64,000 nucleotides of DNA from Gammaproteobacteria bacterium (GCA_021648145.1 JAKITI010000004.1:63848-127847), one strand, 5' to 3'; shown: positions 19,963 through 42,830, counted from the first letter of the stretch. Numbers and translations are program-made. Notes: generated from the letters alone by a model not told the origin.

Positions 19963-20038
19963 GGGGCCATAGCTCAGCTGGGAGAGCGCTACACTGGCAG
20001 TGTAGAGGTCGGCGGTTCGATCCCGCCTGGCTCCACCA
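19963..20038 (+). tRNA. tRNA-Ala (anticodon GGC)
   Basis: GGGGCCATAGCTCAGCTGGGAGAGCGC...CTGGCAG...GGTTCGATCCCGCCTGGCTCCACCA. It has the G3:U70 identity pair and is 76 nt long. Confidence 0.9.
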
Positions 20039-20079
20039 ACTTTTATATGGATCTCGTGCTAGAGAAAAGCAAGTCCTAC

Positions 20080-20155
<76 letters not shown>

Positions 20156-21581: not shown

Positions 21582-22298
21582 TCAAGAAATAGTGCAAAAA
21601 TCTTTCATATATTTTCGGCTGACGGGGATGATCGCACCGCTAACGGTGTGAATCTCTCCTAAACCATTTTCCTGCTTTGTGATCATTTTTATACAGTCTG
21701 GATCGACTAAATGTTGTCGGTAACATCGTACTAATGGAGTATTTTCTTCAAGCACTTTTAAAGAAAGGTCGGTATGAAATTCCTCGCAATTTTTGCCCGT
21801 AACAATATGCACTCCCGTAGTAGTAGTGGAGAATGCACGACAGACATCTTTGACATTGATGAGATAGTTGCAACCATCTTTGTAGCAGGGAATAAATTGC
21901 ATGGTTGTAGATAAGATTTTTACGATATCAGGCTGTGGTCGATAGTCCTCTTTAAGACGCTCTAATGTGATGTTTAAACGATCTGTTTTTACAGGTTTTA
22001 ATAAAAAGTCGATAGCATTTTTTTCAAATGCTTCGATTGCATATTCAGGGTAAGCGGTGACAAAAACAATGCGTGGCATGTCATCTTTATCCAGCATGCG
22101 AAGCATCTCTATGCCTGATATTTTGGGCATGATGATATCAAGAAAAACAACATTCGGGCGCTTGCTGTTGATCTCTTTAATTGCTTCGAATGCATTGGCG
22201 CATTTACCCACGATGTTAAAATCAGGGTCTGCCCCGATCTTTTCTTCCAGATCATCACGCGCGTGAGGTTCATCATCAACAATGAGGGCATTAATCAT
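21582..22298 (-). CDS. LytTR-family response regulator (receiver plus LytTR DNA-binding domain)
   Basis: 238 aa with a receiver domain (ALIVDDEPHARDDL...VVFLDIIMP) and a C-terminal LytTR domain. It overlaps the lytS stop by 4 nt. Confidence 0.85.
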   Translation of the reverse strand: MINALIVDDEPHARDDLEEKIGADPDFNIVGKCANAFEAIKEINSKRPNVVFLDIIMPKISGIEMLRMLDKDDMPRIVFVTAYPEYAIEAFEKNAIDFLLKPVKTDRLNITLERLKEDYRPQPDIVKILSTTMQFIPCYKDGCNYLINVKDVCRAFSTTTTGVHIVTGKNCEEFHTDLSLKVLEENTPLVRCYRQHLVDPDCIKMITKQENGLGEIHTVSGAIIPVSRKYMKDFCTIS

Positions 22299-22301
22299 CT
22301 T

Positions 22302-24110
22302 TTACTCCTTATTATATGGCAGGCGGATATTGACTTGAGTCCACTGCTCCGGTTCACATGAAATAGTAATTCCATAATCCTGACCGTAGCGTATTTTAAT
22401 CCGTTCATCTATTTTCAGTCCGATTCCATGCGGGCTGTTTTTTATATACAGACCCGCATTATCTTCGACGGTCAAGGTCAGCTTATCACTATTTGTCGCA
22501 CAGCTGATCTTGATTACGCCTGTGCCAAGTAATTCACTTGTGCCATGTTTTATGGCATTTTCAACAATCGGTTGTAACGTAAAAACAGGAATCACTTGAT
22601 CAAATAAATACTCTGGAATATCAATATGAATTTGCAAGCGGTCTTCAAAACGTGCTTTTTCTATTGCGAGATAAGATTTGATATGTTCCAGCTCGGATCG
22701 AAGCGTGATGGTATCATCAGATGTTTCCAGGCTTTTTCTGAAAAAATCCGATAAATGATGCAATAAATCACGCGCTCTTTCGGGTTGTTTTTTTGTGATA
22801 TGGCTGATGGTTGCGAGTGCATTATAGAGGAAATGCGGATTGACTTGCGCAGTTAATAGCTTGTATTGGTCTTCAATGCGTAATTCTCGTTGGCGTTCAT
22901 AACGACCGGCGAGAATCTTGCTGGACAGAAGCTCAGCAATATTTTCACCCAGCTTTCTATTAATGTTACGAAATAGTTTATTTTTAGGTTCATATAGCCT
23001 GATGGTACCAATCACCTGATTGTAAACATCATCTTTGAGAGGAATAATCAATACCGAACCCAATCCACAGAACGCTTCGCGTCTGCACTGATAGTTTCGC
23101 CTGAATATCACTTTATTATTCTTAATTGCCTCCAGAGTATCTTCTGAAGCAATGAGTGAGCCGGGTATGTGATGATCATCCCCCAAGCCAGTAAATGCGA
23201 GTAGCCTTTTTTTATCGGTAATGGCGACAGCACCTACTTGGGTTTCCTGTTGTATGATTTCAGTAATTTGCTTGCTGGATTCTGGGTTAAATCGAGTAAA
23301 TATGATGCTTGCGGTTTTCTCTGCAATTTGCCATGCCGTCGTGCTGCTGCGGAGTGTGTCACAAGCACGTTTTTGTTCCTTGATCATATACATGATCAAT
23401 GCTACACCTGCAGAGTTAGCAATTAACATCGGCGGCGCAATCTCCTTAATCAAAACCCAAGTCTTGGATATTTCGTTAAAAAATAGTCCGAATAGTAAAA
23501 TAATTAACATGTGTCCCAGCACGGCAATCAGGGTGACTAAAAAGACAGCTCTAGGAGAAAATAGACGCTCCATTCGGCCGCGATGTGATAAGTAGTAGTG
23601 TACAAAACCTGCTAGAAGTCCTTCGAATGTGGTGGCCACCGCACAGGCGATATCAATATAGTGAATAGGGTCCGTCGGTGATGACATGTACCAAACTCGA
23701 TGAATTCCCCCAGTGAACCCGACAAAAAAGCCAACGACAGGGCCACCCAATAGTCCACCGAGTACCGCCCCAATGGCTCTGGTGTTGGCTATTGCACTCT
23801 CTGATTCAAATGATTGCTCGCTTAGAAATGTTCCCAGAATACAAAAACCGGAAAATACCAGATAGATAACAATTTTATCTGGTAGAGAGAGCGTGTTGTT
23901 GACCAGGTCAGTAAACACAGGTGTTTTGGTGAATAAATAAGCTAAACCTAAAAACACGAGAACGTGCAGCAATAAAGGAGTGATGTGTTCTAAAAATAGA
24001 AGGTCTTGCATGAGTGTTTCGCTGTTATAAAAATATTTATACGACAGATTAACACAAGAAAAAAATCCACTCAGATGATATGGCTGCCACTTAGAAGCTA
24101 TATCAACCAC
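22302..24110 (-). CDS. LytS/BtsS-type sensor histidine kinase (5TM-Lyt plus GAF plus His_kinase plus HATPase)
   Basis: It has an N-terminal multi-TM 5TMR-LYT region, a GAF-like middle, the His_kinase motif NPHFLYNALATISHI and an ATPase domain. The real start is probably MQDLLFLEHI near 24011. The track start at 24110 would overlap the regulatory box. Confidence 0.85.
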   Translation of the reverse strand: MVDIASKWQPYHLSGFFSCVNLSYKYFYNSETLMQDLLFLEHITPLLLHVLVFLGLAYLFTKTPVFTDLVNNTLSLPDKIVIYLVFSGFCILGTFLSEQSFESESAIANTRAIGAVLGGLLGGPVVGFFVGFTGGIHRVWYMSSPTDPIHYIDIACAVATTFEGLLAGFVHYYLSHRGRMERLFSPRAVFLVTLIAVLGHMLIILLFGLFFNEISKTWVLIKEIAPPMLIANSAGVALIMYMIKEQKRACDTLRSSTTAWQIAEKTASIIFTRFNPESSKQITEIIQQETQVGAVAITDKKRLLAFTGLGDDHHIPGSLIASEDTLEAIKNNKVIFRRNYQCRREAFCGLGSVLIIPLKDDVYNQVIGTIRLYEPKNKLFRNINRKLGENIAELLSSKILAGRYERQRELRIEDQYKLLTAQVNPHFLYNALATISHITKKQPERARDLLHHLSDFFRKSLETSDDTITLRSELEHIKSYLAIEKARFEDRLQIHIDIPEYLFDQVIPVFTLQPIVENAIKHGTSELLGTGVIKISCATNSDKLTLTVEDNAGLYIKNSPHGIGLKIDERIKIRYGQDYGITISCEPEQWTQVNIRLPYNKE

Positions 24111-24112
24111 TC
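24085..24112 (+). promoter_or_regulatory. LytTR-type direct-repeat box (GCCACTTA-N12-ACCACTCA), copy 1 of a ~130-bp conserved promoter module
   Basis: It lies in the divergent lytS / lipoprotein intergenic region. The flanks aaaaatatttatacgacagattaacaca...ccactcagatg and cctgatttgt are conserved in the other copies. Confidence 0.5.
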
Positions 24113-24153
24113 ACCTGATTTGTACTTTCTCAGTAATTGATGAGCGTTATATT

Positions 24154-25089
24154 GTGGGTAAGACCAGTTGTTTGACTGTCGTGTGCGAAGTAATTTCGCT
24201 TAATTTTTTTGATAAGGGAAATGTAATGAAAAAACTATTGTGGTGTATGTTTGCTATTTTTTTAACACTATTGAGTGCGTGTGGTGGTGACGGTGTTACC
24301 GAACCCAACGAACCAAAAATTACAAGTTTTCGTGCGGATAAAAACAGCATCATAGCTGGAACAGGAGTCAACTTAACACCTATTTTTTCTGATGGTACTG
24401 GGTCCATTGATAACGGTATAGGTCAAGTTACATCTGGCATCTCTGTCTTAGTAACCCCCGACTCTACAACAAAGTACACCTTAACGGTGAAAAATTCTGA
24501 TGGAAAATCAGTAATGTCAACTACTACCGTTAGGGTTAGTGAACCACCTAACTTACTAGAAAAGCTCGCTGGAAAGGTGAGGTTTGATTATACAGTGAAC
24601 TCGTTTCTCTTTAGTACCACTGCAAATCTTTCCAGCATAGTCTTTAATGGAGAGAAGTATCTTTTTGATAGAGTAACAAGTACCGCTTGCCTCCTTTTTG
24701 AATCACCTTCATTTGAATACTTTTGTATGAAAACAAACACCTCGGGCTCAAAAGATGTTTTTGTATTTGACATGACATCTGACACAAAAGGGGCGGGGCA
24801 ATATGAGTTTTGTCGAAGCAACGAATCAGACGAAGAGTGTGCTTTAGGGATTATGAGTCCAGATGGAGACGTTAAAGTCACCGTAATAAGTAGCTCACCT
24901 AATAGACAGTTAGAGTTAGTGATACCAACAAATTTTGAGTATATCTATAATGATGTAGAGATATACAAGCAAGGCAGTGATATGGACTCTTACTCAGAGA
25001 CTACTGTGCTGAATAGTGATAGTAAGCAAGTTGATACATTAAGTGAACGTATTGAAGCACTTCAACAAATAATCAGAGGTCATTTATGA
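24154..25089 (+). CDS. lipoprotein of unknown function
   Basis: The likely start is MKKLLWCMFAIFLTLLSACGGDG at 24226, with a lipobox LLSAC. The protein is Ser/Thr-rich and looks secreted. Confidence 0.55.
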   Translation: MGKTSCLTVVCEVISLNFFDKGNVMKKLLWCMFAIFLTLLSACGGDGVTEPNEPKITSFRADKNSIIAGTGVNLTPIFSDGTGSIDNGIGQVTSGISVLVTPDSTTKYTLTVKNSDGKSVMSTTTVRVSEPPNLLEKLAGKVRFDYTVNSFLFSTTANLSSIVFNGEKYLFDRVTSTACLLFESPSFEYFCMKTNTSGSKDVFVFDMTSDTKGAGQYEFCRSNESDEECALGIMSPDGDVKVTVISSSPNRQLELVIPTNFEYIYNDVEIYKQGSDMDSYSETTVLNSDSKQVDTLSERIEALQQIIRGHL

Positions 25090-25410
25090 AGTTTAATGAA
25101 GAAGAAAAAGCAAAATTACTGAGCCTCAATGGAGTGGGATCTACGGTGATTAAGCGATTTGAAGAAATAGGAATTAGTTCATTTAAAGAACTGAGTAAAT
25201 ATAGCGTCGATGAGGTTGCGAATAGAGTGGCGGACATGCTTGGAACGACTTGTTGGAAGAATAGTCCACAAGCACGAGCAGCCATAAAATCCGCATTAGA
25301 ACTGGCCAAAAAGGGATAAATAGTTAAGAGGCTGTCTGGTTAAAATGGTATCAGCTGAAAAGGTCTGGCCGGTCACACCACAAGGAAGTCACTTTTGCTC
25401 TGGTTGCCAG
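25000..25410 (+). repeat. ~410-bp duplicated segment, copy A (3' end of the lipoprotein gene, the HhH gene and a downstream spacer)
   Basis: About 85-90% identical to 30785..31200 when compared by eye. Example: ...aagtgaacgtattgaagcacttcaacaaataatcagaggtcatttatgaag aligns with ...aagtgaacgtattgaaacactttagcaaataatcagaggttatttatgaag. Confidence 0.6.
25086..25319 (+). CDS. small helix-hairpin-helix DNA-binding protein (Cdd1/PF11731-like)
   Basis: 77 aa with an HhH motif LNGVGSTVIKRFEEIGISSFKEL. A near-identical copy lies at 30874..31107. Confidence 0.55.
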   Translation: MKFNEEEKAKLLSLNGVGSTVIKRFEEIGISSFKELSKYSVDEVANRVADMLGTTCWKNSPQARAAIKSALELAKKG

Positions 25411-25614
25411 GCTCCTGTGCGGGCAATCCATACCGAACATGAATTTACTTGCCTTATGCTATTGTTTTCATTGCCAATAATTTTCGCTTCACTTGAGCGG
25501 CTCACAATTACAAGCCTCTGGCTTTGCCTGAGGAATTTGGCTTGTAGATATGACAACTATAATGACACAGGGGATGGATGCAGCTCTTGTAAAATCCATT
25601 TAGCACGAGTGACG

Positions 25615-25642
25615 ACCACTTAGAAGCTATATCAACCACTCA
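25615..25642 (+). promoter_or_regulatory. LytTR-type direct-repeat box (ACCACTTA-N12-ACCACTCA), copy 2
   Basis: About 155 bp upstream of the S8 peptidase start. It is followed by the conserved module tail cctagtttgtgcttttccagtcatag...tattgtttgtaaagg. Confidence 0.5.
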
Positions 25643-25766
25643 CCTAGTTTGTGCTTTTCCAGTCATAGTGAAGACTCTATTGTTTGTAAAGGCTCAGAGT
25701 TACATTCAATGCGTAGCGATGGCAAATCTGGTATTAATAGCCAGCGACTTCAATATGATATGAAAA

Positions 25767-27620
25767 ATGAAAGCCAACATATGGACAGCAATAAAAATGA
25801 AAGCAGTTATTCCATTGTTTATAACAATAATTTTTATCTCGGGTTGTGGAAGTGGGGCGGAGCCACCTCCACCTGTTAGTTATACAATTACAGTCAAGGC
25901 AGGCGTGGGGGGAGCAATTTCATCAACAACAGACCTTGATCGTGTTAATGACCCAGTTCGTTTTGATGTGCGCCCGAACAGAAGCTATACCATTGATACC
26001 ATAAGTGGTTGCGGGGGTTCGCTATCAGGCCCTACTCGATTAGGTGAATATTCTTATACGACACAGACACTCACAGCGGATTGCACAATTAATATTTCAT
26101 TTAAAGCTTTAGGTGACCCACTGTATTCTGACCAGTGGCATCTAAAAAACATAGGGCAGGCAGGGAGTGATAAAAACCCCGGAAAAGTGGGGGAAGATAT
26201 TAATGTTGAGGCTGTGTGGAACGGTTGTCAGGAAAATTCATGCCGAGGTGAAGGGGTGCGTATTGTTATCGTTGATGATGGCCTGGAAATTGGGCATGAA
26301 GATTTAAAGGCGAATGTGGTGTTGGGTAAAAGTTACGATTATATTGACAACGATACTGACCCATCGCCATCAGTTACAGAGCCAAGTGATGAAGCCATAC
26401 ATGGTACCAGTGTTGCGGGTATTATCGCTGCACGAGATTCGAATGGAGTCGGTGTCGTCGGTGTTGCGCCGCGTGCAGAGTTGGTTAGTTATAACTATTT
26501 AAATGCACAAACCGTAATGAATGAAAGTGATGCGATGACTCGGGATGCAGCACAAAATCATGTTTCCAACAATAGCTGGGGAACAGTTGACGGTACGGGA
26601 TGGCTTATGGATTCTCCCGCAGTATGGCGTACCGCTATAGATACTGGCCATCGTATTGGGCGGCATGGCTTGGGAACCATTTACGTTTGGGCGGCAGGTA
26701 ATGGTTATATCGGAAGTTTTTTGGGCAGACCATTCATAGCAGATAATTCAAATTATGATGGTTATGCGAATTATCGAGGCGTGATTGCAGTGGGTTCAGT
26801 GACAAATTCAGGAAAGAGCTCTTCTTATAGTGAGCAAGGTGCAAACCTGTTAATCAGTGCGCCGGGGGGTGAATTTTGTGATACACATGCAATTGTGACA
26901 ACCGATATCACTGGAGCGAATGGTTATAATTCAGGTTCGTCAAATAATGACTATGACGATAGTAACTATACCGCTTGTTTTGGAAGCACTTCCGCTGCAG
27001 CGCCAATGGTATCCGGTGTTGCAGCCTTGATATTGCAGGCCAATCCTCGTTTGGGTTGGCGTGATGTGCACGCTATTTTAGCACGCAGTGCCAGAAAAAA
27101 TAATCCGTCCCAATCAGATTGGAAAACAAATGGAGCAGGGCTCTCTATCAATCACAACTATGGTTTTGGTGTGGTGGATGCACAGGCGGCTGTTTTATTG
27201 GCAAAAAAATGGGTGAATTTACCGTCGGAGAAAAAATATTCAACTGCTAAAAAGGATGTCAATATAAGCATTGGTGATAATGATGATACTTCTGTTGGCT
27301 CGACCTTGAATGTGGTTTCAAGTGGTATTAATAATATTGAGTTTATTGAAATTACATTCAGGGCAGATGACCATGCTTACTCGGGTGACCTGGAAATCAT
27401 ACTGCTCAATCAGACGACAGGCACGACCAGTCGTTTAGCAGAGAAGCATGAGTGTGGTGGCTTGTTCGGTTGTATTTTGCCTTATAAAAATTGGCGTTTT
27501 GGTTCAACACGCCACCTTGGTGAAAGCGCAGATGGCGATTGGCAGCTCATCGTTAAAGATAAGGCTGATGGTGATACAGGAACATTTCAGTCATGGAAGC
27601 TGACTTTTTATGGAACTTAG
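25767..27620 (+). CDS. subtilisin/kexin-like serine peptidase (S8) with a C-terminal P-domain (proprotein-convertase type), lipoprotein
   Basis: The likely start is MKAVIPLFITIIFISGC (lipobox) at 25797. The catalytic triad regions are VIVDDGLE, HGTSVAGIIAA and GTSAAAPMVSGVAAL. The C-terminal P-domain ends DWQLIVKDKADGDTGTFQSWKLTFYG. Confidence 0.85.
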   Translation: MKANIWTAIKMKAVIPLFITIIFISGCGSGAEPPPPVSYTITVKAGVGGAISSTTDLDRVNDPVRFDVRPNRSYTIDTISGCGGSLSGPTRLGEYSYTTQTLTADCTINISFKALGDPLYSDQWHLKNIGQAGSDKNPGKVGEDINVEAVWNGCQENSCRGEGVRIVIVDDGLEIGHEDLKANVVLGKSYDYIDNDTDPSPSVTEPSDEAIHGTSVAGIIAARDSNGVGVVGVAPRAELVSYNYLNAQTVMNESDAMTRDAAQNHVSNNSWGTVDGTGWLMDSPAVWRTAIDTGHRIGRHGLGTIYVWAAGNGYIGSFLGRPFIADNSNYDGYANYRGVIAVGSVTNSGKSSSYSEQGANLLISAPGGEFCDTHAIVTTDITGANGYNSGSSNNDYDDSNYTACFGSTSAAAPMVSGVAALILQANPRLGWRDVHAILARSARKNNPSQSDWKTNGAGLSINHNYGFGVVDAQAAVLLAKKWVNLPSEKKYSTAKKDVNISIGDNDDTSVGSTLNVVSSGINNIEFIEITFRADDHAYSGDLEIILLNQTTGTTSRLAEKHECGGLFGCILPYKNWRFGSTRHLGESADGDWQLIVKDKADGDTGTFQSWKLTFYGT

Positions 27621-27652
27621 AAACGGTCACAAAATTTCAGGATGGTTTTATT

Positions 27653-28285
27653 ATGAATAAAATATTATTACGTCAATGTGTCTTCGTCAGTATGGTCATA
27701 GGGTTGGCGGTATTTCAGGTAAGCTGGGCGATGAGTTCAAAGCCTGACGTTAATGCTAAACAACTGGTAGAGCCAGCTCACTATTTTTGGTATGACGGAG
27801 ATGAAAAACGATCCGTTTGGGTGAACCCAAAATTAATGGTTGAATTTAAGTTGCAGCCCGAGACGAGCACTCAACTACAATTACGTTACGCGGCAAAAGA
27901 GATTGATGTACCGTCATCTTTTGTTCGCCTTTGGGAAATTGAAAGTGATCTGTCAACCAAAGCTGTTGCTAGAAGTTTGAATAAAGATGTGGGTAGCCAG
28001 CTCTCTCCTGTATTGCATGATAGTGCGTCAATCTCTGGAGCCAAAAGAGCGTTGCCTGGAAATGTTTTGGTTCAAATGAGAGCTGATTGGAGCATGGGGC
28101 AAATAGAGTCCTGGTTTGAAATGCATGATTTAATCATGATTAAATCTTTAACTTTTGCGGAAAATTCATTTTTGATCAGATCAAATCCGGGGTTGGACGC
28201 ACTGAATACGGCAAACCGAATTTACGAAACAGGTGACGTAGTATTGGCTTCACCTGATTGGTGGCAGGAAATGGTTGCTAGGTAA
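27653..28285 (+). CDS. secreted protein co-transcribed with the S8 peptidase (possible cognate chaperone, ASP/ORF2-like arrangement)
   Basis: The track ORF starts at 27593 but the signal peptide MNKILLRQCVFVSMVIGLAVFQVSWA begins at 27653. There is no detectable catalytic motif. It follows the protease with a 30-nt gap. Confidence 0.45.
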   Translation: MNKILLRQCVFVSMVIGLAVFQVSWAMSSKPDVNAKQLVEPAHYFWYDGDEKRSVWVNPKLMVEFKLQPETSTQLQLRYAAKEIDVPSSFVRLWEIESDLSTKAVARSLNKDVGSQLSPVLHDSASISGAKRALPGNVLVQMRADWSMGQIESWFEMHDLIMIKSLTFAENSFLIRSNPGLDALNTANRIYETGDVVLASPDWWQEMVAR

Positions 28286-28355
28286 ATTCAGATCTTTACT
28301 TATTATTAATTAACAAAATAGTTTTTTCTCCAATTTAAAAATATGGAAATTTATC

Positions 28356-29900
28356 ATGCATAAAAAAAAGTATTGGCTGCTTGCTCTAGTCATTTTGTTT
28401 ATATGTCTATTTATATCAAACCAAGCCTTTGCTGCTGAGAGCGCAGGTTTCGGAGAAGCGCTTGATAGATGGTTTGGAGTGTTAGTCGGTTATATTGCTG
28501 CCGTTTCATTTTTTGATCTGCTTTTTTTCAGCGATGATTACAAACTCCCCTTCGCCGTTGCATGGCTCATTGTCGGTGCTGTTTTTTTCACATTCCGTAT
28601 GGGGTTTATTAACGTAAGAGCCTTCACTCATGCGATTCAATGTGTTCGCGGGCGTTATGACAATCCAAACGATGTCGGTGAAACCAGCCACTTTCAAGCG
28701 CTGACAACTGCACTTTCTGCGACTGTCGGTTTAGGCAATATTGCCGGTGTTGCAATCGCCATCAGTATCGGTGGGCCAGGCGCTACATTCTGGATGATTG
28801 TGGCCGGTTTTTTAGGAATGACGGCTAAATTCACTGAGTGTACTTTGGCGCAGATGTATCGAAAAGTTCGCCCTGATGGTCATATCATGGGGGGGGCTAT
28901 GGAATATTTAAGTCAGGGACTGGCTGAAATGGGCTGGGCCAGGTTAGGTAAAGTGCTGGCCGTGTTGTTTTGTATTCTATGTATTTTGGGCTCTTTCGGT
29001 GGCGGCAATGCTTTTCAAGTTAATCAATCACTCGGAATCATCCAGCAGCATATTCCCTTGTTAGAGAGCAGTCCCTGGATTTTTGGGCTATTTATGATGG
29101 TATTAGTTGGTGCAGTTATTATTGGTGGAATTAAGCGTATTGCCCATGTGACTGAAGCCATTGTACCTACAATGTGTGCTATCTATGTAGCCGCCTGCCT
29201 CTGGGTTATCTTAACCAATATGCCTGAAATTCCTGCAGCATTTTCACTGATTTTTACGGGTGCTTTTTCACCTGAAGCTGGGTTGGGCGGTATCATCGGT
29301 GTTTTGATTATTGGCTTTCAACGTGCCGCATTTTCCAATGAAGCTGGCATTGGCTCAGCAGCCATCGCTCACTCAACCGCAAAAACAAAATATCCAGTGC
29401 GTGAGGGTATTGTTTCACTGCTTGAGCCTTTTATTGATACCATCATTATCTGCACAATGACTGCTTTAGTCATCATTATTACGGGTGTTTACAATAGCCC
29501 TGAAACGGCTGAATTGGTTGCAAATAGACAAGGTGCAGCGTTAACCAGTGTTGCTTTTGGCAGTGCCATTTCATGGTTTCCTATCATACTGAGCATATGT
29601 GTCACTCTATTTGCTTTCAGTACAATGATCGCTTGGTCTTTTTATGGTGAGCGTTGCTGGTCATACCTATTTGGTGATCAATCCTCCATTATTTATAAAT
29701 TATTGTTTTTATTGTTTGTTTTATTAGGCTCCGTGGTCAGCGCCCCTAATGTTTTAGATTTCAGTGATTTAATGATTTTACTCATGGCAATTCCTAATCT
29801 GATTGGCCTCTATTTTCTGCATGGGAAAGTAAAAATAGCACTGCGTAGTTATATGAAAAAATTAAAGAGTGGTGAATTTGAAAAAGAGCGTCAGCATTGA
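28356..29900 (+). CDS. alanine/glycine:cation symporter (AGCS family)
   Basis: 514 aa with about 11 TM helices and AGCS hallmark blocks GLGNIAGVAIAISIGGPGATFWMIVAGFLGMTAKFTEC and QRAAFSNEAGIGSAAIAHS. Confidence 0.85.
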   Translation: MHKKKYWLLALVILFICLFISNQAFAAESAGFGEALDRWFGVLVGYIAAVSFFDLLFFSDDYKLPFAVAWLIVGAVFFTFRMGFINVRAFTHAIQCVRGRYDNPNDVGETSHFQALTTALSATVGLGNIAGVAIAISIGGPGATFWMIVAGFLGMTAKFTECTLAQMYRKVRPDGHIMGGAMEYLSQGLAEMGWARLGKVLAVLFCILCILGSFGGGNAFQVNQSLGIIQQHIPLLESSPWIFGLFMMVLVGAVIIGGIKRIAHVTEAIVPTMCAIYVAACLWVILTNMPEIPAAFSLIFTGAFSPEAGLGGIIGVLIIGFQRAAFSNEAGIGSAAIAHSTAKTKYPVREGIVSLLEPFIDTIIICTMTALVIIITGVYNSPETAELVANRQGAALTSVAFGSAISWFPIILSICVTLFAFSTMIAWSFYGERCWSYLFGDQSSIIYKLLFLLFVLLGSVVSAPNVLDFSDLMILLMAIPNLIGLYFLHGKVKIALRSYMKKLKSGEFEKERQH

Positions 29901-29940
29901 GCTGACAACTTGTTTTTGTTATTTGGGCTGGTACGGAAAA

Positions 29941-30063
29941 TTCATTTTTAATCAGCCTAAATCTGAGGTTGGATGCACCGCAGACAGCGAACCAAACTTA
30001 TGAAACAGGTGACGTGGTATTGGTTTCAGAGAATTGGTGGCAAGGTGATTTTATGTGGATAGA
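29941..30063 (+). pseudogene. diverged duplicate of the 3' end of the 27653..28285 gene (gene fragment)
   Basis: About 80% identical to 28165..28285. It would encode ...TANQTYETGDVVLVSENWWQ, compare ...TANRIYETGDVVLASPDWWQ. Together with the original it flanks the AGCS gene as a direct repeat. Confidence 0.45.
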
Positions 30064-30101
30064 TTAACAAAGTAAAAAAACCCCACTCAGATGGAATAAC
30101 T

Positions 30102-30129
30102 GCCACTTAGAAGCTATATCAACCACTCA
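30102..30129 (+). promoter_or_regulatory. LytTR-type direct-repeat box (GCCACTTA-N12-ACCACTCA), copy 3
   Basis: About 140 bp upstream of the 30271 ORF. The full module is present: ccccactcagatggaataactgccacttagaagctatatcaaccactcacctgatttgtgcttttccagtcatga.... Confidence 0.5.
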
Positions 30130-30270
30130 CCTGATTTGTGCTTTTCCAGTCATGATTAAGACGATATTGTTTGTAAAGGATCATGGTTACATTCAATACG
30201 AAACAACAAAAAATTAGTTAAGAAGAGCATAAGTGATCAATATAAAACCGATAATGCACCCGAAATAATA

Positions 30271-30774
30271 TTGGATAGGGTTCGTTCTTGGATTCTTGAA
30301 GATAGCGAAGTTAAGCCGTCTGATTATGATTTTAAGGGTGAGCATTTGCTTGATATACGTCGGGCGTATCAAAGTGCATGTCTTTTATATGGTGCTAGTC
30401 CAGCAGATTGGTTCAGTGACATAAAGTTTTTAAAGTTTTCGGAAAATGACCTCGCCAATTGTTCAGATACCGCGCCCGATCAAACTATAGGTTGGAAAAA
30501 AGTGCTTGAGCCATATAAATTGTCCGAAGGTACGTCTAATAATGTTGAGATAATATATGGTGAAGGGTCGATGAAAAATCAAATGATGGCAACGGGTATA
30601 CTTGAAGAATTTGCTGAAACGGTCAAGCAGTTTAATTGGCCTGAACCTATTATAATTCATTTTGATCATTGTGATAGAGGAGCTTCGTGGAGTCGGGAGA
30701 AGCGTAGAATTATGCTTTGTGATGATTATGTTTCTAGGTTTATTCGTCAAGGCGAAGCTATTCAGTCGAATTAA
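30271..30774 (+). CDS. hypothetical protein (possible metal-binding motif HFDHCD)
   Basis: 167 aa with no confident family assignment from sequence alone. Confidence 0.4.
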   Translation: MDRVRSWILEDSEVKPSDYDFKGEHLLDIRRAYQSACLLYGASPADWFSDIKFLKFSENDLANCSDTAPDQTIGWKKVLEPYKLSEGTSNNVEIIYGEGSMKNQMMATGILEEFAETVKQFNWPEPIIIHFDHCDRGASWSREKRRIMLCDDYVSRFIRQGEAIQSN

Positions 30775-30784
30775 TTTTAACTGG

Positions 30785-31200
30785 GTACTTACTGTGCTTA
30801 ATAGCGATAGCGAGCTAAGCTGATACATAAGTGAACGTATTGAAACACTTTAGCAAATAATCAGAGGTTATTTATGAAGTTTAATGAAGAAGAAAAAGCA
30901 AAATTACTGAACCTCAAAGGAGTGGGATCTACGGTGATTAAGCGATTTGAAGAAATAGGAATTAGTTCATTTAAAGAACTGAGGAAATATAGCGTCGATG
31001 AGGTTGCGAATAGAGTAGCGGACATGCTTAGAACAACTTGTTGGAAGAATAGTCCACAAGCACGAACAGCCATAAAATCTGCAATAGAACTGGCCAAAAA
31101 GGGATAAATAGTTAAGAGGCTGTATGGTTAAAATGGTTTCAGCTGCAAAGGGCTGAGCCGTCATCACAAGAAAGTCACTTTTGTTCTGGTTTCCACGCCG
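30785..31200 (+). repeat. ~410-bp duplicated segment, copy B (a non-coding remnant of the lipoprotein 3' end, then the HhH gene and spacer)
   Basis: See copy A. The lipoprotein-derived part here has stop codons in all frames and is a remnant. Confidence 0.6.
30874..31107 (+). CDS. small helix-hairpin-helix DNA-binding protein, second copy
   Basis: 77 aa and 70/77 identical to the 25086 protein. Confidence 0.55.
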   Translation: MKFNEEEKAKLLNLKGVGSTVIKRFEEIGISSFKELRKYSVDEVANRVADMLRTTCWKNSPQARTAIKSAIELAKKG

Positions 31201-31480
31201 GAACGATGATCAATATAAATATATTCTTTCCGCAGCTTATTTTAGCGTTAAGTAATAAGTGCGCGAATTCAGGGTACATTATTTGCAGAGTTTCGTTCAT
31301 AATACCTTCACTGTATGTGAAATTGATAAAGGAGTTGATAGTGAAATTGAGTCAGTATTTTATGTTGTTACTTGGGTTGAATTCAGGGAATGATATGTGC
31401 GGCAAAAATACATGCCTCTTTACACCGCCCAATGAGCATGGCGATATACATCTTAAAAAATCCACCCAAGGATATCAGTT

Positions 31481-31774
31481 ATGCATGTCACACTGGAAAA
31501 ACTACAATCCTATAAAAGTGAAATTTCTCGTATTGCTGCAAACTATCATGCGAATAATATAAGGGTCTTTGGCTCTGTCGTTCGAGGGGAGTCCTATGAA
31601 AATAGTGACATTGATCTATTGGTTACTTTTCAATCTGGGGCAAGCCTGCTTGATCAGGCGGGTTTGATCAGCGAACTAGAAGGCATGCTTGGTACTACTG
31701 TAGATGTTGTCAGTGACCGCGCTCTTAATCGTCACCTGAGCACAAAAATTTTAAATGAAGCACAACCGCTATGA
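31481..31774 (+). CDS. mntA: MntA-type nucleotidyltransferase antitoxin (type VII TA)
   Basis: 97 aa with the minimal nucleotidyltransferase motif RVFGSVVRGESYENSDIDLLV. Its stop overlaps the downstream HEPN gene start (ATGA). Confidence 0.75.
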   Translation: MHVTLEKLQSYKSEISRIAANYHANNIRVFGSVVRGESYENSDIDLLVTFQSGASLLDQAGLISELEGMLGTTVDVVSDRALNRHLSTKILNEAQPL

Positions 31775-32098
31775 AGCAGCGGAAAATATATGCTCTAGCA
31801 ATTTATGATTGTATTCAACGCATTCATGAGTATACAGACGGTTATGATGTTGATGCTTTTACAAAGGATTACAAAACGCAAGATGCTGTTGTACGAAACC
31901 TTGAAATCATCGGGCAAGCAGTTAAGGACTATGGTGTTGACCATCTAATTGACCATGCTCCAAATGTCCCTTGGTCACAAGTCGCAGGAATGAGAAATAT
32001 CATCGCTCATGAATATCTTGGTGATCGTGTGGGAAACAGTAAAATGGAATCTTCCTCAGTTGGAAAGTGCTATCATAGAGCTCACTCAGCATGAGTGA
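31771..32098 (+). pseudogene. hepT: HepT-type HEPN toxin (DUF86) with an apparent frameshift near its 3' end
   Basis: It has the HEPN motif RNIIAHEY. After ...YLGDRV the annotated frame reads GNSKMESSSVGKCYHRAHSA*. The +1 frame reads IVWETVKWNLPQLESAIIELTQHE*, which is the canonical DUF86 C-terminus. Confidence 0.6.
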
Positions 32099-32218
32099 AG
32101 AATTTTAGTTGTTTTTTATATTCGTAATATTTTATTTCTCGCTTGTTTTCTTCGCTGTATAAAAATATTTATACGACAGATTAACACAGGAAAAAAACCC
32201 CACTCAGATGGAATAACT

Positions 32219-32246
32219 GCCACTTATAAGCTATATCAACCACTCA
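32219..32246 (+). promoter_or_regulatory. LytTR-type direct-repeat box (GCCACTTA-N12-ACCACTCA), copy 4
   Basis: About 115 bp upstream of the SPFH gene. The full ~130-bp module is present, including the aaaaatatttatacgacagattaacaca 5' arm. Confidence 0.5.
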
Positions 32247-32360
32247 TTTGATTTGTGCTTTTCCAGTCATGATGAAGACGATATTGTTTGTAAAGGATCA
32301 TGGTTATATTCAATACGAAGACTTGATTCCTTTGTTTTGTCTTTATAGGAGGAGGAAAAG

Positions 32361-33419
32361 ATGAGTAAATATTTGTTTGTAATGGGTGCTTTTTTATTGG
32401 CCCACCTGATTGTCATTTCTCCTGAGAGAGGAATGGATATGGCAAAGGCTCTGGATATTGATGTCAGTGTGCTCACATACGCCTTGTGGGCGATTATTCT
32501 GGTCTTATTGATCAAATTTGCTTTCTCTTTACCTGGAATATACGTAAACATTGCTGAGGGAAATGTCGGTGTTGTCTCGCGTTTTAGTCGCTTCTCAAGA
32601 ACGCTAAGCCCGGGGTTTAACTTTATCTATCCGTGGGAGAAAGTTGAAAATTTGTCGATCCAGTGTCGTGCCATCGAGCTGGAGTTCCAGGCGATTACGC
32701 TAGACCAAGCCAGTGTCTATTTTAACTGTGCCATCATTTTTTCGGTTGTTGGTACAGATAAGGAAATGGTGCGCAGGGCTGTCTATTCGTTTGGGTCAGA
32801 AAGTGAGTTTGAGTTATCTGTCCAGCGTTTGCTCGAAGATGAAACCCGTGCCTATGTGGCCACCAGATGCCAGGCAGATATGATAGGAATATCCCAGGAT
32901 GTTGTCGTAAAAATCAAAACAAATGTCGAGAAAAATATCGAAAAATGGGGGTATAAGGTAGAGGATCTCCGTTATGCAAACCTTCATTTTGATGAGGTGG
33001 TTACAAAGTCAATGGCAAGGGTTGTTGCTGCCGTCAATGAAAGGGATGCCGCAGAAAATGAAGGCCAGGCACTACTTATTCGCAAGGTCAAATTAGCCGA
33101 GGCTGAAGGGGAATTTGTCCGCATTCAGGCCGAAGCGGAACGAACCGCATGGAAGTTGCGAGGGCAAGGCTTGTCTGATTTTCGAAAAGAGGTTGCCAAA
33201 GGTATCCACGTTGCAGTGGATGAGATGACAACAGCAGGGCTTGACCCTAACTTCCTTCTGTTTTTTATGTACACGGAAACATTGAAACACATCGCAGAAA
33301 ACTCAAATGCGGGTAGTACTATTTTTGTGGACAACAGTCCTTCTGTACCTAATACCATCATGCAGCAGATGTCTGCATTTTATAAAAACGAACCCATTTC
33401 AGAGAAAACTGAAAGTTAA
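32361..33419 (+). CDS. SPFH/band-7 (stomatin/prohibitin-like) membrane protein
   Basis: 352 aa with an N-terminal TM helix, an SPFH core (NVGVVSRFSRFSRTLSPGFNFIYPWEKVENLSIQ) and a coiled-coil segment. Confidence 0.8.
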   Translation: MSKYLFVMGAFLLAHLIVISPERGMDMAKALDIDVSVLTYALWAIILVLLIKFAFSLPGIYVNIAEGNVGVVSRFSRFSRTLSPGFNFIYPWEKVENLSIQCRAIELEFQAITLDQASVYFNCAIIFSVVGTDKEMVRRAVYSFGSESEFELSVQRLLEDETRAYVATRCQADMIGISQDVVVKIKTNVEKNIEKWGYKVEDLRYANLHFDEVVTKSMARVVAAVNERDAAENEGQALLIRKVKLAEAEGEFVRIQAEAERTAWKLRGQGLSDFRKEVAKGIHVAVDEMTTAGLDPNFLLFFMYTETLKHIAENSNAGSTIFVDNSPSVPNTIMQQMSAFYKNEPISEKTES

Positions 33420-33543
33420 CAGAGAAAGAGCAGAAATAGGGGTCAAACATTGACCCCTTGCCCCCAGGTTTTAATGAAGACTCTATTCAAGGCATTGTTG
33501 AGTATAACAGTGGGCAATATAAGTTTAGTGAAGGAGAGTATAA

Positions 33544-33693
33544 ATGAACACAATATTATTGGGCATATTTAAACTTACAGGAATAGGAGGACTTTTGCTC
33601 ATAATTATGGTGCTTTGTATAGTGGGTGTTATTAATAGAACTGAAGGTAAAAATAGTAAAGGGGGAGGTTGGGATGATGGCTGTGGCGGCTGA
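33544..33693 (+). CDS. unannotated small single-TM peptide (49 aa), copy A
   Basis: MNTILLGIFKLTGIGGLLLIIMVLCIVGVINRTEGKNSKGGGWDDGCGG*. It has an RBS-like GAAGGAGAG upstream. Its conserved 5' leader is shared with copy B at 36761. It is below the 60-aa ORF-track cutoff. Confidence 0.45.
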   Translation: MNTILLGIFKLTGIGGLLLIIMVLCIVGVINRTEGKNSKGGGWDDGCGG

Positions 33694-33802
33694 CTTTAGT
33701 GTTAGGTGTGACGTTCTCGTATTCAGAAAGCATTTGAGTTGCGTTTGTAAAAATGTGCCGATAAATTAACACAGGGAAAAATCCCACTCAGATGGAATAA
33801 CT

Positions 33803-33830
33803 ACCACTTAGAAGATATATCAACCACTCA
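33803..33830 (+). promoter_or_regulatory. LytTR-type direct-repeat box (ACCACTTA-N12-ACCACTCA), copy 5
   Basis: About 98 bp upstream of the pspA-like ATG at 33928. Confidence 0.5.
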
Positions 33831-33927
33831 CCTGATTTGTGCTTTTCTAGCCGCGTTCAAGCGATTACTGTTTACCCTTGTTTCCACGTTCATGTGTGGA
33901 AGTACATATCTCAAACAGGAGAGCAAA

Positions 33928-34606
33928 CATGAGTGAAACTTTAACAGGCCGTGTTGGGCGTATTATCAGCGGCAGTGTCAATACACTGGTCGATGCTATT
34001 GAAAACGCGACACCCGAGATGGTCATGGAACAAGCGGTTCGTGAAATTGATAGCTCTGTAGATGATGTGCGCACCGAACTAGGCCGTATGATGGCGAAGA
34101 AGCATCTTGCCAATAAACGTCTTATGGAAGAGAGTAGAAAACATAAGGAGTTAGCCGAAAAAACCAACCTCGCTATAGAGCAAGGTCGGGATGATTTGGC
34201 CGAAGCAGCCATTGCACAGCAGTTAGATATTGAAGCGCAAATTCCGATACTGGAAAACGCCATTGCAGATGCCGCCAATCAGGAAAAAGAGCTGGAAGGT
34301 TATATCTTTGCGCTTCAAGCAAAAAAACGGGAGATGAAAGAGGAGCTGCAACTGTTTCATGCGGCGAAAAAAGAGGCTGCCGCGAGTCGCAATACAAATT
34401 CAACCGTGCGCACAAACTCCAATGTGCAATCTCGCGTAGAAAAAGCAACATCAGCATTTGAACGTGTGGTTGAAAACTCCACGGGTATGCCGAGTAGTCA
34501 CGGCCCTAGTGACCGAAAAACAGCCGTTCAGCTGGTGGAATTAGAGGCGCTTGCCCGCAAAAACCGCATCCAGAAACGATTAACGGCTATCAAAGAAAGG
34601 GCTTAA
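33928..34606 (+). CDS. pspA: PspA/IM30-family protein (phage-shock protein A-like, ESCRT-III fold)
   Basis: The track ORF starts at 33878. The likely start is MSETLTGRVGRIISGSVNTLVDAIE at 33928 with the RBS caggagag. The whole protein is coiled-coil and co-linear with PspA. Confidence 0.85.
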
Positions 34607-34633
34607 CAAAACTCCTGACGGGAGCGGATTTAT

Positions 34634-34894
34634 ATGTCAATTGATGAAACCGACGCAGTATCTGAAGAAACCTTTATTGGACGAGTGGCCAAGATCACCT
34701 TAGGGAAAGCTGAGATTAGCAGTCCAGCACAAGCAAAGTTAAAAGATGAGCATGGCCAGATCCATTACATCATGGTTGAGCCTGACATGCAGAATGAAAT
34801 TTTTGAAACCGGTCGTTTAGTTATTTTAGTCAGCAGGGTTGGTGCTATTTTTAAAGCGATTCCCAACGACAAATCGGTTCTTTTTGATGAATAA
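34634..34894 (+). CDS. hypothetical soluble protein co-operonic with pspA and flotillin
   Basis: 86 aa with no TM helix. The gaps are tight: 27 nt after pspA and 17 nt before the flotillin gene. Confidence 0.45.
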   Translation: MSIDETDAVSEETFIGRVAKITLGKAEISSPAQAKLKDEHGQIHYIMVEPDMQNEIFETGRLVILVSRVGAIFKAIPNDKSVLFDE

Positions 34895-34911
34895 AAAAGG
34901 AAGGAATACCA

Positions 34912-36669
34912 ATGAATTTTGATTTAACGAATATACAGATTATTACAGTAGCCTTCATCACTTCTCTGATTGTACTTGGGTTGATATGTAGCCGTTTATA
35001 TAGGCGGGCTTCTAAACAAGTCTCTTTTGTGCGAACCGGATTTCGTGGCCAAAAGGTGATTAAAAATGGCGGTTGCCTCGTCTATCCCGTGCTGCATGAA
35101 ATCATTCCCGTTAACATGAATACGTTACGCTTGGAGGTTCGGCGGTCAAATGAACAAGCTTTAATTACACGAGACCGTATGCGTGTTGATGTGGCCGCTG
35201 AATTTTACGTACGAGTAAAACCAACAGAAGATGCCATTGGCGATGCGGCTCAAACTTTGGGCATGAAAACCATGAAACCCGAACTATTAAAACAGTTGAT
35301 TGAAGGTAAATTTGTTGATGCCCTACGTGCCGTTGCCGCCGAGATGGCGATGGAAGAACTGCATGAACAACGGGTCGATTTTGTTCAAAAAGTTCAACAA
35401 GCCGTCTCAGAAGATTTATTGAAAAATGGCTTGGAACTAGAGTCCGTTTCACTCACAGGTTTAGACCAAACCAGTAAAGAGTTCCTTAACCCTGACAATG
35501 TTTTTGATGCGGAGGGTTTAACCAAGCTAACAGAGGCAATTGAAAGTCGTCGCAAGAAGCGTAATGACATTGAGCAAGACACTGAAGTGGCCGTTGCCAA
35601 TAAAAATCTCGACGCTGAGCGTAACAAATTAGAAATTCAACGAGAACAAGAATACGCTCGACTAGAACAAGAGCAGGAAATTGAAATTCGTCGCGCCGCA
35701 CAAACGGCAGAAATTTCACGTGAACGAGCAGAGAAACAACGTGATGCTGAGCAAGCGCAAATTAATGCACAACAACAAGTAGAATCTTCAAAAATTGCAA
35801 CTGAGCGTGCTATTGAAGAGCAGCGTATCGATAAAGATCGTCAGCTAAAAGAAAACGAAATCACTAAGACTAAGGCCGTAGAAACGGCGGAAATAGAACG
35901 CCTCAAAACAGTCGAATTAGCTGAGCAAGACCGCGCTATCGCCATTGCAGAAAAATCGAAAGAAAAATCTGTCAGTGAAGCCACTGCCGACAAAGCGCGG
36001 GCCGAGGCGGTAAAAGCTGAAGAAATGGTTGTCACCGTTCGTGAAACGGAACAAGCTGAGCGAGCAAAAGCCGTTGAACTGGTTCTTGCAAGTCAACAAG
36101 CCGAGCGCCAGGCGATCTCTATCAAAGTCGCTGCCGAGGCAGAAAAAATGGCGGCAGAGGATCAAGCCGAAGCCGTGGCCATTTTAGCCAATGCAGAAGC
36201 ACAAAAGCTGCGCATTACCGCTGAAGGCTGTGCCGATGCGGAAAAACTAAAAGCTGAAGCGGCTGAAAAAACATATGCAGTCGATGCTGAAGGCCAACAC
36301 GCCCTCAATGAGTCACGCAACATTCTCAGCGCAGAACAGATCGCGATGCAAATACGCATGGCCTTGATAGAGCAACTACCGCAAATCATCCGTGAAAGCG
36401 TTAAGCCCATGGAGCAAATTGACGGTATTAAAATTATTCAAGTTGATGGTTTAAATGGCGGTTCAAATGGATCTGGAGAAACAGCAACCAATAATAGTAA
36501 TGGTGGAAGCTTGGCCGATCAGTTAGTCAATAGTGCCTTGAAATACCGCAGCCAGGCACCGTTGGTTGATTCGCTATTATCCGACATTGGCTTGGACGTG
36601 GGTGATATTAATGGCATGAGCAGAATGCTTCACAATAAGCCCGAAACAGAGAGTAAAAGAGGGGTTTAA
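34912..36669 (+). CDS. flotillin-family protein (SPFH domain plus long EA-rich coiled coil, YqiK/FloT-like)
   Basis: 585 aa with an N-terminal TM helix, an SPFH domain, and about 250 aa of Glu/Ala/Arg/Gln-rich coiled coil (EQEIEIRRAAQTAEISRERAEKQRDAEQAQ...) followed by a flotillin C-terminal region. Confidence 0.85.
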   Translation: MNFDLTNIQIITVAFITSLIVLGLICSRLYRRASKQVSFVRTGFRGQKVIKNGGCLVYPVLHEIIPVNMNTLRLEVRRSNEQALITRDRMRVDVAAEFYVRVKPTEDAIGDAAQTLGMKTMKPELLKQLIEGKFVDALRAVAAEMAMEELHEQRVDFVQKVQQAVSEDLLKNGLELESVSLTGLDQTSKEFLNPDNVFDAEGLTKLTEAIESRRKKRNDIEQDTEVAVANKNLDAERNKLEIQREQEYARLEQEQEIEIRRAAQTAEISRERAEKQRDAEQAQINAQQQVESSKIATERAIEEQRIDKDRQLKENEITKTKAVETAEIERLKTVELAEQDRAIAIAEKSKEKSVSEATADKARAEAVKAEEMVVTVRETEQAERAKAVELVLASQQAERQAISIKVAAEAEKMAAEDQAEAVAILANAEAQKLRITAEGCADAEKLKAEAAEKTYAVDAEGQHALNESRNILSAEQIAMQIRMALIEQLPQIIRESVKPMEQIDGIKIIQVDGLNGGSNGSGETATNNSNGGSLADQLVNSALKYRSQAPLVDSLLSDIGLDVGDINGMSRMLHNKPETESKRGV

Positions 36670-36760
36670 TTATTAAAATATATAGGTTTTGATGAAGACT
36701 CTATTCAGGGTGTTGTTGAGTATAACAATGGGCAATATAAATTAGTGAAGGAGAGTATAA

Positions 36761-36931
36761 ATGAACACAATATTATTGGGCATATTTAGTGTCGTTATGA
36801 TAGTGGTCGTAGTGAACATATTCGAACTTACAGGAATAGGAGGACTTTTGCTCATAATTATGGTGCTTGGTATAGTGGGTGTTATTAATAGAACTGAAGG
36901 TAAAAATAGTAAAGGGGAGAGGTTGGGATGA
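36761..36931 (+). CDS. unannotated small TM peptide, copy B (56 aa, with a 1-nt indel near the 3' end relative to copy A)
   Basis: MNTILLGIFSVVMIVVVVNIFELTGIGGLLLIIMVLGIVGVINRTEGKNSKGERLG*. Its leader matches copy A: gatgaagactctattca.ggc.ttgttgagtataaca.tgggcaatataa.tt.agtgaaggagagtataaatgaacac. Confidence 0.4.
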   Translation: MNTILLGIFSVVMIVVVVNIFELTGIGGLLLIIMVLGIVGVINRTEGKNSKGERLG

Positions 36932-36995
36932 TGGCTATAGTGGTTGATTTTTTATGCAACGAGCAGGGTGAATAAACAGCCCCTTTGGAGGATCC

Positions 36996-40907: not shown

Positions 40908-41176
40908 AATTTTTGTGGTTATATTAATTTTTTTCTGCCCTGCTATTTAATAGCATATCCACTGCTAATGATAAAAAATAATTTGTTCTCAATTGGTCTT
41001 GGTTTTTAGAAATCATATTGAGCTAGGTGGGGGTATTTAATTTTGGACAAGGCTAATATATAGTGTTATGCGTTATAAATGGGACTTTGAGAGCATACTC
41101 TTGTGCAAAATCCTAATGATCTCAACAATATATTTCCGTATAATAGCCAGCCAAAAATCAAACTGGAGATTAAAAA

Positions 41177-41386: not shown

Positions 41387-41389
41387 GGC

Positions 41390-42700: not shown

Positions 42701-42830
42701 AAAATAGCTCCATAAATATCGTATTGAATTTGCGGTCGTAGTATACAGTAATTATTTCAGCAACTTTTTTCACACTTGTTAAAATACTGTTATCTAGGAT
42801 CATTATCAGAAATAAAGGGTACATATAAAA

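Follow-up and report, generated by a model that had tools for sequence, protein, structure and literature searches.

The LytTR-type regulator BtsR (YehT) of Escherichia coli and its kinase BtsS have a single reported target, the gene btsT, which encodes a CstA-family pyruvate transporter (PMC5431176, PMC5552118). We analysed a 64,000-nucleotide (nt) stretch of DNA from a Gammaproteobacteria bacterium (GCA_021648145.1, JAKITI010000004.1:63848-127847; hereafter the window), in which five copies of a module containing short direct repeats precede five transcription units. The cluster is flanked by two two-component systems, with kinases HK1 and HK2 and response regulators RR1 and RR2. With a probability of about 0.8, judged from the sequence, we propose that the modules are activator-dependent sigma-70-type promoters carrying a BtsR-type LytTR operator, and that together they form a locally expanded five-unit regulon. 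The original prediction for this DNA, made from the sequence alone, had likewise taken the repeats for the binding-site set of a LytS/LytTR regulon. It gains support from the match of the half-sites to the E. coli site, the BtsR-type character of the regulators and the conservation of the repeat core beside orthologous systems in other species.

The half-site bound by BtsR reportedly reads ACC[G/A]CT[C/T]A, a wording ascribed to a 2012 study by Kraxenberger. This half-site, which the original prediction had quoted, fits both the "yjiY YehT bs" oligonucleotide tabulated in the paper on YpdB (PMC4847170) and the sequence upstream of btsT in strain MG1655, which reads GCCGCTCA-N12-ACCGCTTA-N13-ACCACTCA and ends 135 nt before the ATG. 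The distal element of the MG1655 sequence (5416-5466, minus strand, of our locus L023), GCCGCTCA, is a third BtsR-like unit located 12 nt upstream of the two repeats usually cited. The proximal and middle units in the window, [A/G]CCACT[C/T]A, fit the same half-site. Like the modules, the btsT promoter has three units in the identical order CTCA/CTTA/CTCA, and its distance to the start codon (135 nt) compares with about 95-141 nt for the modules. The systems differ in their targets: one reported target, btsT, in E. coli against five promoters in the window, where no CstA-family gene follows any module. Instead of a pyruvate transporter, the outputs in the window are PspA, flotillin, an SPFH protein, a protease, a lipoprotein and an AGCS symporter. 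Also unlike E. coli, the spacer sequence itself is conserved and two paralogous systems flank the targets.

LytTR operators generally consist of two 9-11-nt repeats with 11-13-nt spacers (PMC4847170). In the pln regulon of Lactobacillus plantarum, which is controlled by PlnC and PlnD, each of five clustered operons carries the same repeat pair with a 12-bp spacer upstream of its promoter; the two homologous LytTR regulators bind the same repeats, and spacers are conserved within functional groups (PMC2714321). The window resembles pln in organisation (five promoters, two regulators and a 12-nt spacer) and the E. coli btsT promoter in its predicted mechanism. However, pln is a Firmicute system in which a peptide-pheromone (HPK10-type) kinase controls bacteriocin genes and the repeat, TACGTTAAT, abuts the -35 element. 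In contrast, the window has LytS-type 5TM-Lyt kinases, three repeats, of which the proximal one ends ~12 nt before the -35 position, and an envelope-related regulon. The Staphylococcus aureus AgrA P2/P3 and LytSR-lrgAB sites share with the window 8-11-nt direct repeats, 11-13-nt spacers and a regulator with the LytTR beta-fold, and LytSR has a LytS-type sensor linked to membrane state. Their repeat sequence and targets differ from those described here, and the window gave no evidence for holin/antiholin-type genes.

Five copies of a triple-repeat module

Exact matches to RCCACTYA-N12-ACCACTYA occur five times in the window, starting at 24086, 25615, 30102, 32219 and 33803, all on the plus strand. 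None was found in 100 dinucleotide-preserving shuffles (0 expected versus 5 observed). Four of these positions had been predicted exactly, while the first had been placed one nucleotide off, at 24085. The pattern search and shuffles bear out the claim that each core has a 12-nt spacer and half-sites 20 bp apart. The pair of half-sites originally described is part of a larger unit, as a mismatch-tolerant search revealed a third, distal half-site 20 bp upstream of the core in every copy. The full operator is therefore [T/C]CCACTCA-N12-[G/A]CCACTTA-N12-ACCACTCA, a triple direct repeat with 20-bp phasing in a module of ~145 nt. Both spacers are 12 nt long in all five copies, the distal unit is degenerate in copy 2 (TCCATTTA), and no fourth half-site is present at +20. 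Two hallmarks of LytTR operators in general, at least two direct repeats of ~8-11 nt and a spacer of 11-13 nt, are thus found.

A repeat search returned a single five-copy family of 145 nt (Table 1), whose members are 60-94% identical to copy 3. An nhmmer profile built from the module recovered exactly these five copies and no degenerate sixth across the 64 kb. Among the copies, identity is 93-100% over the 28-nt core with its spacer GAAGCTATATCA and 60-94% over the arms. The original prediction that the copies share both arms holds in part: the 5′ arm (ATACGACAGATTAACACA) is found in copies 1, 4 and 5 but is partial in copy 3 and absent from copy 2, while the long 3′ arm is common to copies 2, 3 and 4 and only partial in copies 1 and 5.

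As predicted, the modules stand ahead of five plus-strand units, and copy 1 lies within the divergent promoter region of the HK1 operon, which spans 215 bp between HK1 and the lipoprotein gene. Several start codons had to be corrected (HK1, ATG at 24011 on the minus strand; lipoprotein, ATG at 24226; pspA, ATG at 33929), which places the end of the proximal repeat about 95-141 nt from the downstream start codon. The corrected HK1 start agrees with that of its orthologue in a related locus (L006), MQDLLF.

Conceivably, only one or two copies work, and the others are non-functional passengers of recent segmental duplications. Unit 3 is a patchwork with a truncated first open reading frame (ORF) and tolerates an insertion sequence (IS), and in two related loci (L003/L012) an orphan, degenerating copy adjoins a transporter-gene fragment. 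However, the 28-nt core has remained 93-100% identical while the arms have diverged to 60-85%, which argues for purifying selection on each core, and the genes behind four of the five copies are intact and have good ribosome-binding sites. We consider it unlikely that most copies are passengers, although some, notably copy 3, may be decaying.

Flanking regulators and conservation of the core

The HK1/RR1 genes lie to the left of the cluster on the minus strand and the HK2/RR2 genes to the right on the plus strand; all intervening genes are on the plus strand, in five units. We scored both regulators against the NCBIfam BtsR equivalog NF008677, which has a cutoff of 246 bits. RR1 passes with 279.5 bits, and RR2, at 244.8 bits, falls ~1 bit short. 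Over its full length, RR1 is 45% identical to E. coli BtsR, while only its receiver (REC) domain aligns with PyrR (YpdB). RR2 is 40% identical to BtsR and 27% identical to PyrR. Identity to E. coli BtsS is 47% for HK1 (full length) and 38% for HK2. Because of these scores and identities, we classify the two flanking systems as paralogous and of the BtsS/BtsR rather than the YpdB type. RR1 and RR2 are just 32% identical to each other. The exact RR1 sequence is annotated as BtsR in an NCBI metagenome-assembled genome (MAG) named "Gammaproteobacteria bacterium", and its relatives come from Thiotrichaceae and hydrothermal-vent MAGs.

Related loci were fetched around RR1 and RR2 homologues and by searching collections of genomes and metagenomes with the core plus its spacer. 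In the genome collection, which does not include the source genome, matches came from only two other species (L012 and L013). A search for contigs encoding RR1 yielded a single 2.5-kb Logan contig. Metagenome contigs of the same species (L016-L020), which are 98.5-99.9% identical to the window and span copies 2-5, contained no additional sites. Across species and positions, in about a dozen loci, the 27-nt core (27-28 nt, including the spacer GCTATATCA) is 81-100% identical, while flanks are ~20-50% identical. In every related locus examined, the core co-occurs with orthologues of one or both BtsS/BtsR-type systems: HK1/RR1-type genes adjoin it in L006, L021 and L027, and HK2/RR2-type genes in L013, L025, L026, L027 and L028. 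In L013 and L014, it precedes the orthologue of the S8 protease gene.

The arrangement varies among these loci. In L006, whose regulator is of the RR1 type (76% identical), the core occupies the same kinase-divergent position as copy 1, the alignment extends over the whole module with its arms, and a 51-amino-acid (aa) membrane ORF follows. The core of L021 is 102 nt upstream of, and co-oriented with, an HK1-type operon. In L013, it lies between an HK2/RR2-type operon and the protease orthologue, with a weaker site on the opposite strand facing the kinase. L014/L015 contain two copies, of which one precedes small ORFs and the other the protease gene, with an RR2-like gene upstream and an HK1-type start downstream. 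L027 has two back-to-back sites between divergent HK1-type and HK2-type operons; it also encodes a stand-alone LytTR-domain ORF of 114 aa that has no receiver domain and adjoins the RR2-type gene (8440-8784, minus strand). In L025, L026 and L028, a site lies upstream of operons with HK2/RR2-type genes. The L028 operon, which consists of genes for a sodium:dicarboxylate symporter (SDF), HK2 and RR2, is divergent from a pspA-yqiJ-flotillin unit. A candidate BtsR-type site upstream of pspA in L028 has one good half-site only and was not convincing. Directly downstream of RR1 orthologues in L002, L003, L006 and L007, there are BtsR-like repeat pairs that do not have the conserved spacer.

The link of RR1 and RR2 to the operator rests on synteny: their genes are adjacent to it here and their orthologues are adjacent to it in about 12 loci. 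Since the motif is associated with both paralogue families, the modules in the window may be used by RR1, RR2 or both. The same evidence bears on whether the repeats are instead the operator of a transcription factor encoded elsewhere, or whether a second factor acts on the spacer and the proximal block, making the LytTR neighbours a coincidence. The spacer GCTATATCA and the block CCTGAYTTRTGCTTTT show more conservation than half-site recognition calls for, which would favour such a factor. Yet the half-sites match the E. coli BtsR fragment, their geometry is the LytTR standard, and the co-occurrence with BtsS/BtsR-type pairs extends to every related locus examined and to two paralogue families. 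We regard another factor as improbable.

Promoter features and the proposed regulon

At 16 of 19 sites, including those of distant species, a -10-like hexamer (second base A, last base T) begins 34-37 nt beyond the proximal repeat. The hexamers at this position include TATTGT, TACTGT, TATACT, TATTAT, GATAAT and TAATAT. The idea that the 3′ arm may supply the -35 and the -10 survives for a -10-like hexamer at a fixed position, but not for the -35, as none was recognisable. Between the proximal repeat and the -35 position, the block CCTGAYTTRTGCTTTT is conserved across species. If the -10-like hexamer is real, the repeats would be centred near -51.5, -71.5 and -91.5. A poor -35 is typical of activator-dependent promoters, the kind that we propose the modules to be. 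For sigma-54, we inspected CCTGATTTGTGCTTTT by eye for GG-N10-GC and found no fit at the required spacing. A candidate divergent HK1 promoter, TTAATC-17-TATAAC (minus strand, 24024-24052), would leave a leader of just 5-6 nt and is not claimed. It accompanies an imperfect palindrome in the 5′ arm (24014-24055, 75% complementary), which is also conserved in copy 4 and in L006 and could represent either a second operator or the promoter of the kinase.

Approximately 25-30 nt downstream of the putative -10 are also common to copies 2-4 and L006, as might be expected if the conserved element were not a DNA operator but a transcribed one, for example a 5′ leader, a riboswitch or a small RNA. However, no Rfam family matched at threshold, folding energies resembled those of shuffled sequences (z -1.0 to +0.9), and there was no unusual conserved fold to indicate a structured cis-regulatory RNA. 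Moreover, conservation peaks at the repeat core, upstream of the -10-like hexamer, and the part that would be transcribed diverges between species. A transcribed element is therefore highly improbable.

In the mechanism we favour, the operator would be three 8-bp direct repeats (RCCACTYA) whose 20-bp phasing places them on the same helix face. One or both kinases would phosphorylate the BtsR-type regulators; bound cooperatively to the repeats, these would bring RNA polymerase to a promoter with a -10-like TAYTGT and no usable -35. This would jointly induce the lipoprotein; the kexin-like S8 protease with its partner and the Na:alanine symporter; the decaying patchwork unit; the SPFH protein; and pspA-yqiJ-flotillin. 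Read-through from unit 5 into HK2-RR2 would probably provide positive feedback. Duplication of the module in this lineage would have brought further genes under control. These elements, namely RR1/RR2 binding, activation, the acting regulator, the signal and read-through into HK2-RR2, we infer from sequence.

Several observations weigh against this model. A scan for consensus sigma-70 promoters found none in any of the five modules, and the -35 position, if the hexamer is the -10, reads TTTTCC. In E. coli, the proximal spacer is 13 nt and that of the distal pair 12 nt, whereas both module spacers are 12 nt; the 13-bp proximal spacer is thus not reproduced in the window, while both lengths occur among related loci. 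Good preservation of the distal repeat is limited to the species of the window. As RR1 and RR2 are just 40-45% identical to BtsR, it is from the co-occurrence of the sites that we infer a common DNA specificity. The near-invariant spacer GCTATATCA and the block CCTGAYTTRTGCTTTT are more tightly conserved than a simple two-half-site model requires and could reflect a second factor. Finally, unit 3 looks degenerate and has an IS in a strain variant.

A further-reaching idea we put forward tentatively. Both BtsS/BtsR-type systems could converge on a common composite operator of ~45 bp whose spacer and proximal flank would be as constrained as its half-sites, with the two regulators acting either as a competing activator and repressor, in the manner of PlnC and PlnD, or as co-binding partners. 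The regulon, grown by copying of entire promoter modules instead of de novo evolution of sites, would then provide a LytS-type route, independent of PspF/sigma-54 and Lia, to an envelope response that combines Psp, flotillin, SPFH and protease genes.

The occurrence of pspA with band-7/flotillin and YqiJ genes is a known neighbourhood, and two-component control of pspA homologues is also known; a link between LytS/LytTR systems and PspA is not described in a survey of the phage shock protein (PSP) system (PMC11237479). Known regulators of the PspA family are PspF with sigma-54 in E. coli and LiaRS in Bacillus, whereas here neither a sigma-54 motif nor PspF is present and the candidate regulator is a LytS/LytTR system of the BtsS/BtsR type. 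The locus suggests that a BtsR-type regulator and a near-identical site drive a multi-operon envelope or membrane-stress programme in uncultured Thiotrichaceae-like gammaproteobacteria from vent or sediment samples. This programme would comprise PspA, flotillin/YqiJ, the SPFH protein and the kexin-like lipoprotein protease, plus an amino-acid symporter. The five natural operator variants and about a dozen orthologous loci could be used to define BtsR-type recognition and the roles of the spacer and third repeat. Although the locus is a clear example of regulon growth through promoter-module duplication, the mechanism is of a known kind; it opens no new mechanism and settles no long-standing question.

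Origin of the copies and neighbouring genes

Over their 145 nt, copies 3 and 4 share 94.5% identity, while their flanks are unrelated. The 5′ arm of copy 4 retains sequence that borders directly on the HK1 start in copy 1 and in L006. Copy 2 is at the ancestral protease position, yet its 3′ arm is like those of copies 3 and 4 and unlike that of the orthologous copy in L013/L014. Other segments of the region are also duplicated. A 412-nt segment (25002-25412 and 30790-31198, 92% identity) contains the 3′ end of the lipoprotein gene and a 77-aa HhH-like ORF (25086-25319 and 30874-31107), and because of this duplication we regard unit 3 as a mosaic. A 109-nt repeat (28158-28266 and 29934-30042, 81% identity) flanks the Na:alanine symporter gene on both sides, with one copy forming the 3′ end of the 230-aa ORF and the other immediately upstream of module copy 3. 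This bracketing suggests that the symporter gene was inserted into an older junction between the protease partner and a module. Further duplicated segments are located at 33466-33697 and 36684-36951. In a strain variant (L020), we observed an IS66-family transposase gene (519 aa; 711-2270, minus strand). The breakpoint of this insertion is at ~30243 of the window, ~115 nt downstream of the proximal repeat of copy 3, between the module and the ORF at 30271.

Several of these features would be expected of a small mobile promoter cassette, similar to a miniature inverted-repeat transposable element (MITE), that happens to carry a regulator box, an alternative raised in the original prediction. 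These are the near-identity of copies 3 and 4 within unrelated flanks, the 5′-arm part in copy 4 that abuts the HK1 start codon in copy 1, and the rearranged state of the region, with its other duplicated segments and the IS66 element in the variant. However, the copies have no common terminal inverted repeats, and no flanking target-site duplications were seen. Rather than many copies dispersed in either orientation, there are five, in one 10-kb cluster, all co-oriented with a downstream gene at a similar distance. Same-species metagenome contigs gave only the cluster copies, and in other species the module is syntenic, beside the kinase and beside the protease. No transposase is associated with it. 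We consider the cassette explanation very unlikely. The similarities among the copies and the other duplicated segments favour segmental duplication and/or gene conversion within the genome over transposition; the copies have neither common terminal inverted repeats nor an associated transposase, and no further copy occurs elsewhere in the window or in the same-species metagenome contigs. The sequence comparisons point to a module that is ancestral beside the kinase genes and the protease gene and was copied or homogenised within the genome.

Table 1. Modules, regulatory genes and transcription units of the cluster (window coordinates)
Feature	Coordinates	Strand	Details
Module copy 1	24042..24186	+	half-sites 24066-24073 (TCCACTCA), 24086-24093 (GCCACTTA), 24106-24113 (ACCACTCA)
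Copy 1 -10-like hexamer	24150-24155	+	TATTGT (TATATT 24148-24153)
Module copy 2	25571..25715	+	half-sites 25595-25602 (TCCATTTA, degenerate), 25615-25622 (ACCACTTA), 25635-25642 (ACCACTCA)
Copy 2 -10-like hexamer	25678-25683	+	TATTGT; precedes S8 protease unit
Module copy 3	30058..30202	+	half-sites 30082-30089, 30102-30109, 30122-30129
Copy 3 -10-like hexamer	30165-30170	+	TATTGT; precedes patchwork unit 3
Module copy 4	32175..32319	+	half-sites 32199-32206, 32219-32226, 32239-32246
Copy 4 -10-like hexamer	32282-32287	+	TATTGT; precedes SPFH gene
Module copy 5	33759..33903	+	half-sites 33783-33790, 33803-33810, 33823-33830
Copy 5 -10-like hexamer	33866-33871	+	TACTGT; precedes pspA
RR1	21582..22298	-	BtsR-type REC-LytTR response regulator; NCBIfam BtsR equivalog
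HK1	22302..24011	-	BtsS-type LytS histidine kinase, 569 aa; Pfam 5TM-5TMR_LYT and His_kinase; ATG 24011
Unit 1	24226..25319	+	lipoprotein 24226-25089 (lipobox LLSAC); 77-aa HhH-like ORF 25086-25319
Unit 2	25767..29906	+	S8/kexin-like protease with P-domain 25767-27620; 230-aa partner 27593-28285; Na:alanine symporter 28356-29900; terminator-like hairpin 29890-29906
Unit 3 (patchwork)	30271..32094	+	DUF4344 C-terminal fragment ORF 30271-30774
Unit 3, middle	30790-31198	+	duplicated lipoprotein 3′ end and 77-aa paralogue
Unit 3, end	31481-32094	+	MNT/HepT toxin-antitoxin pair, between modules 3 and 4
Unit 4	32361..33693	+	SPFH/Band-7 protein 32361-33419; 49-aa transmembrane ORF with Gly/Asp-rich tail 33544-33693
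Unit 5	33929..39469	+	pspA 33929-34606; yqiJ 34634-34894; flotillin yqiK 34912-36669; 56-aa transmembrane ORF 36761-36931; HK2 (BtsS-type with GAF) 36996-38747; RR2 (REC-LytTR) 38744-39469

The first ORF of unit 3 has a TTG start and no Shine-Dalgarno sequence, and its match to the DUF4344 model (220 positions) is confined to positions 146-220, which suggests a truncated remnant. In unit 5, we found no convincing plus-strand terminator between the first genes and HK2. The region upstream of HK2 is homologous to that upstream of copy 5 but lacks the module.

Two tRNA genes (19963-20152) and an AAA_14-type AAA-ATPase gene (20410-21516) precede the HK1/RR1 end of the cluster. With these genes at this end, the whole cluster could be an island, though its GC content is not distinctive. 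At the other end, RR2 is adjoined by two paralogous SDF genes on the minus strand (39648-40907 and 41390-42700; 72% DNA identity). No BtsR-like sites were found upstream of them (searched at 40890-41400 and 42690-42840). SDF genes or fragments also occur near BtsS/BtsR-type systems in L012, L021, L026, L027 and L028, some of them behind a BtsR-like site.

A family of small ORFs, 49-72 aa in length, recurs in these loci. Each encodes a single hydrophobic helix and a C-terminal tail rich in Gly and Asp (for example, ...GGGWDDGCGG) and has a strong ribosome-binding site; Pfam gave no match for the family. In the window, its members (33544-33693 and 36761-36931) follow the SPFH and flotillin genes, while those in L006 (132-287, minus strand) and L014 (3132-3290 and 3987-4205, both minus strand) lie directly behind a module.

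Further along the window, a DUF2058 gene (42831-43376) is followed by a gene for a 762-aa fusion of an MFS transporter with a spermine/spermidine-synthase-like domain (43588-45876). Polyamine-synthase genes are a reported theme of PspA neighbourhoods (PMC11237479).

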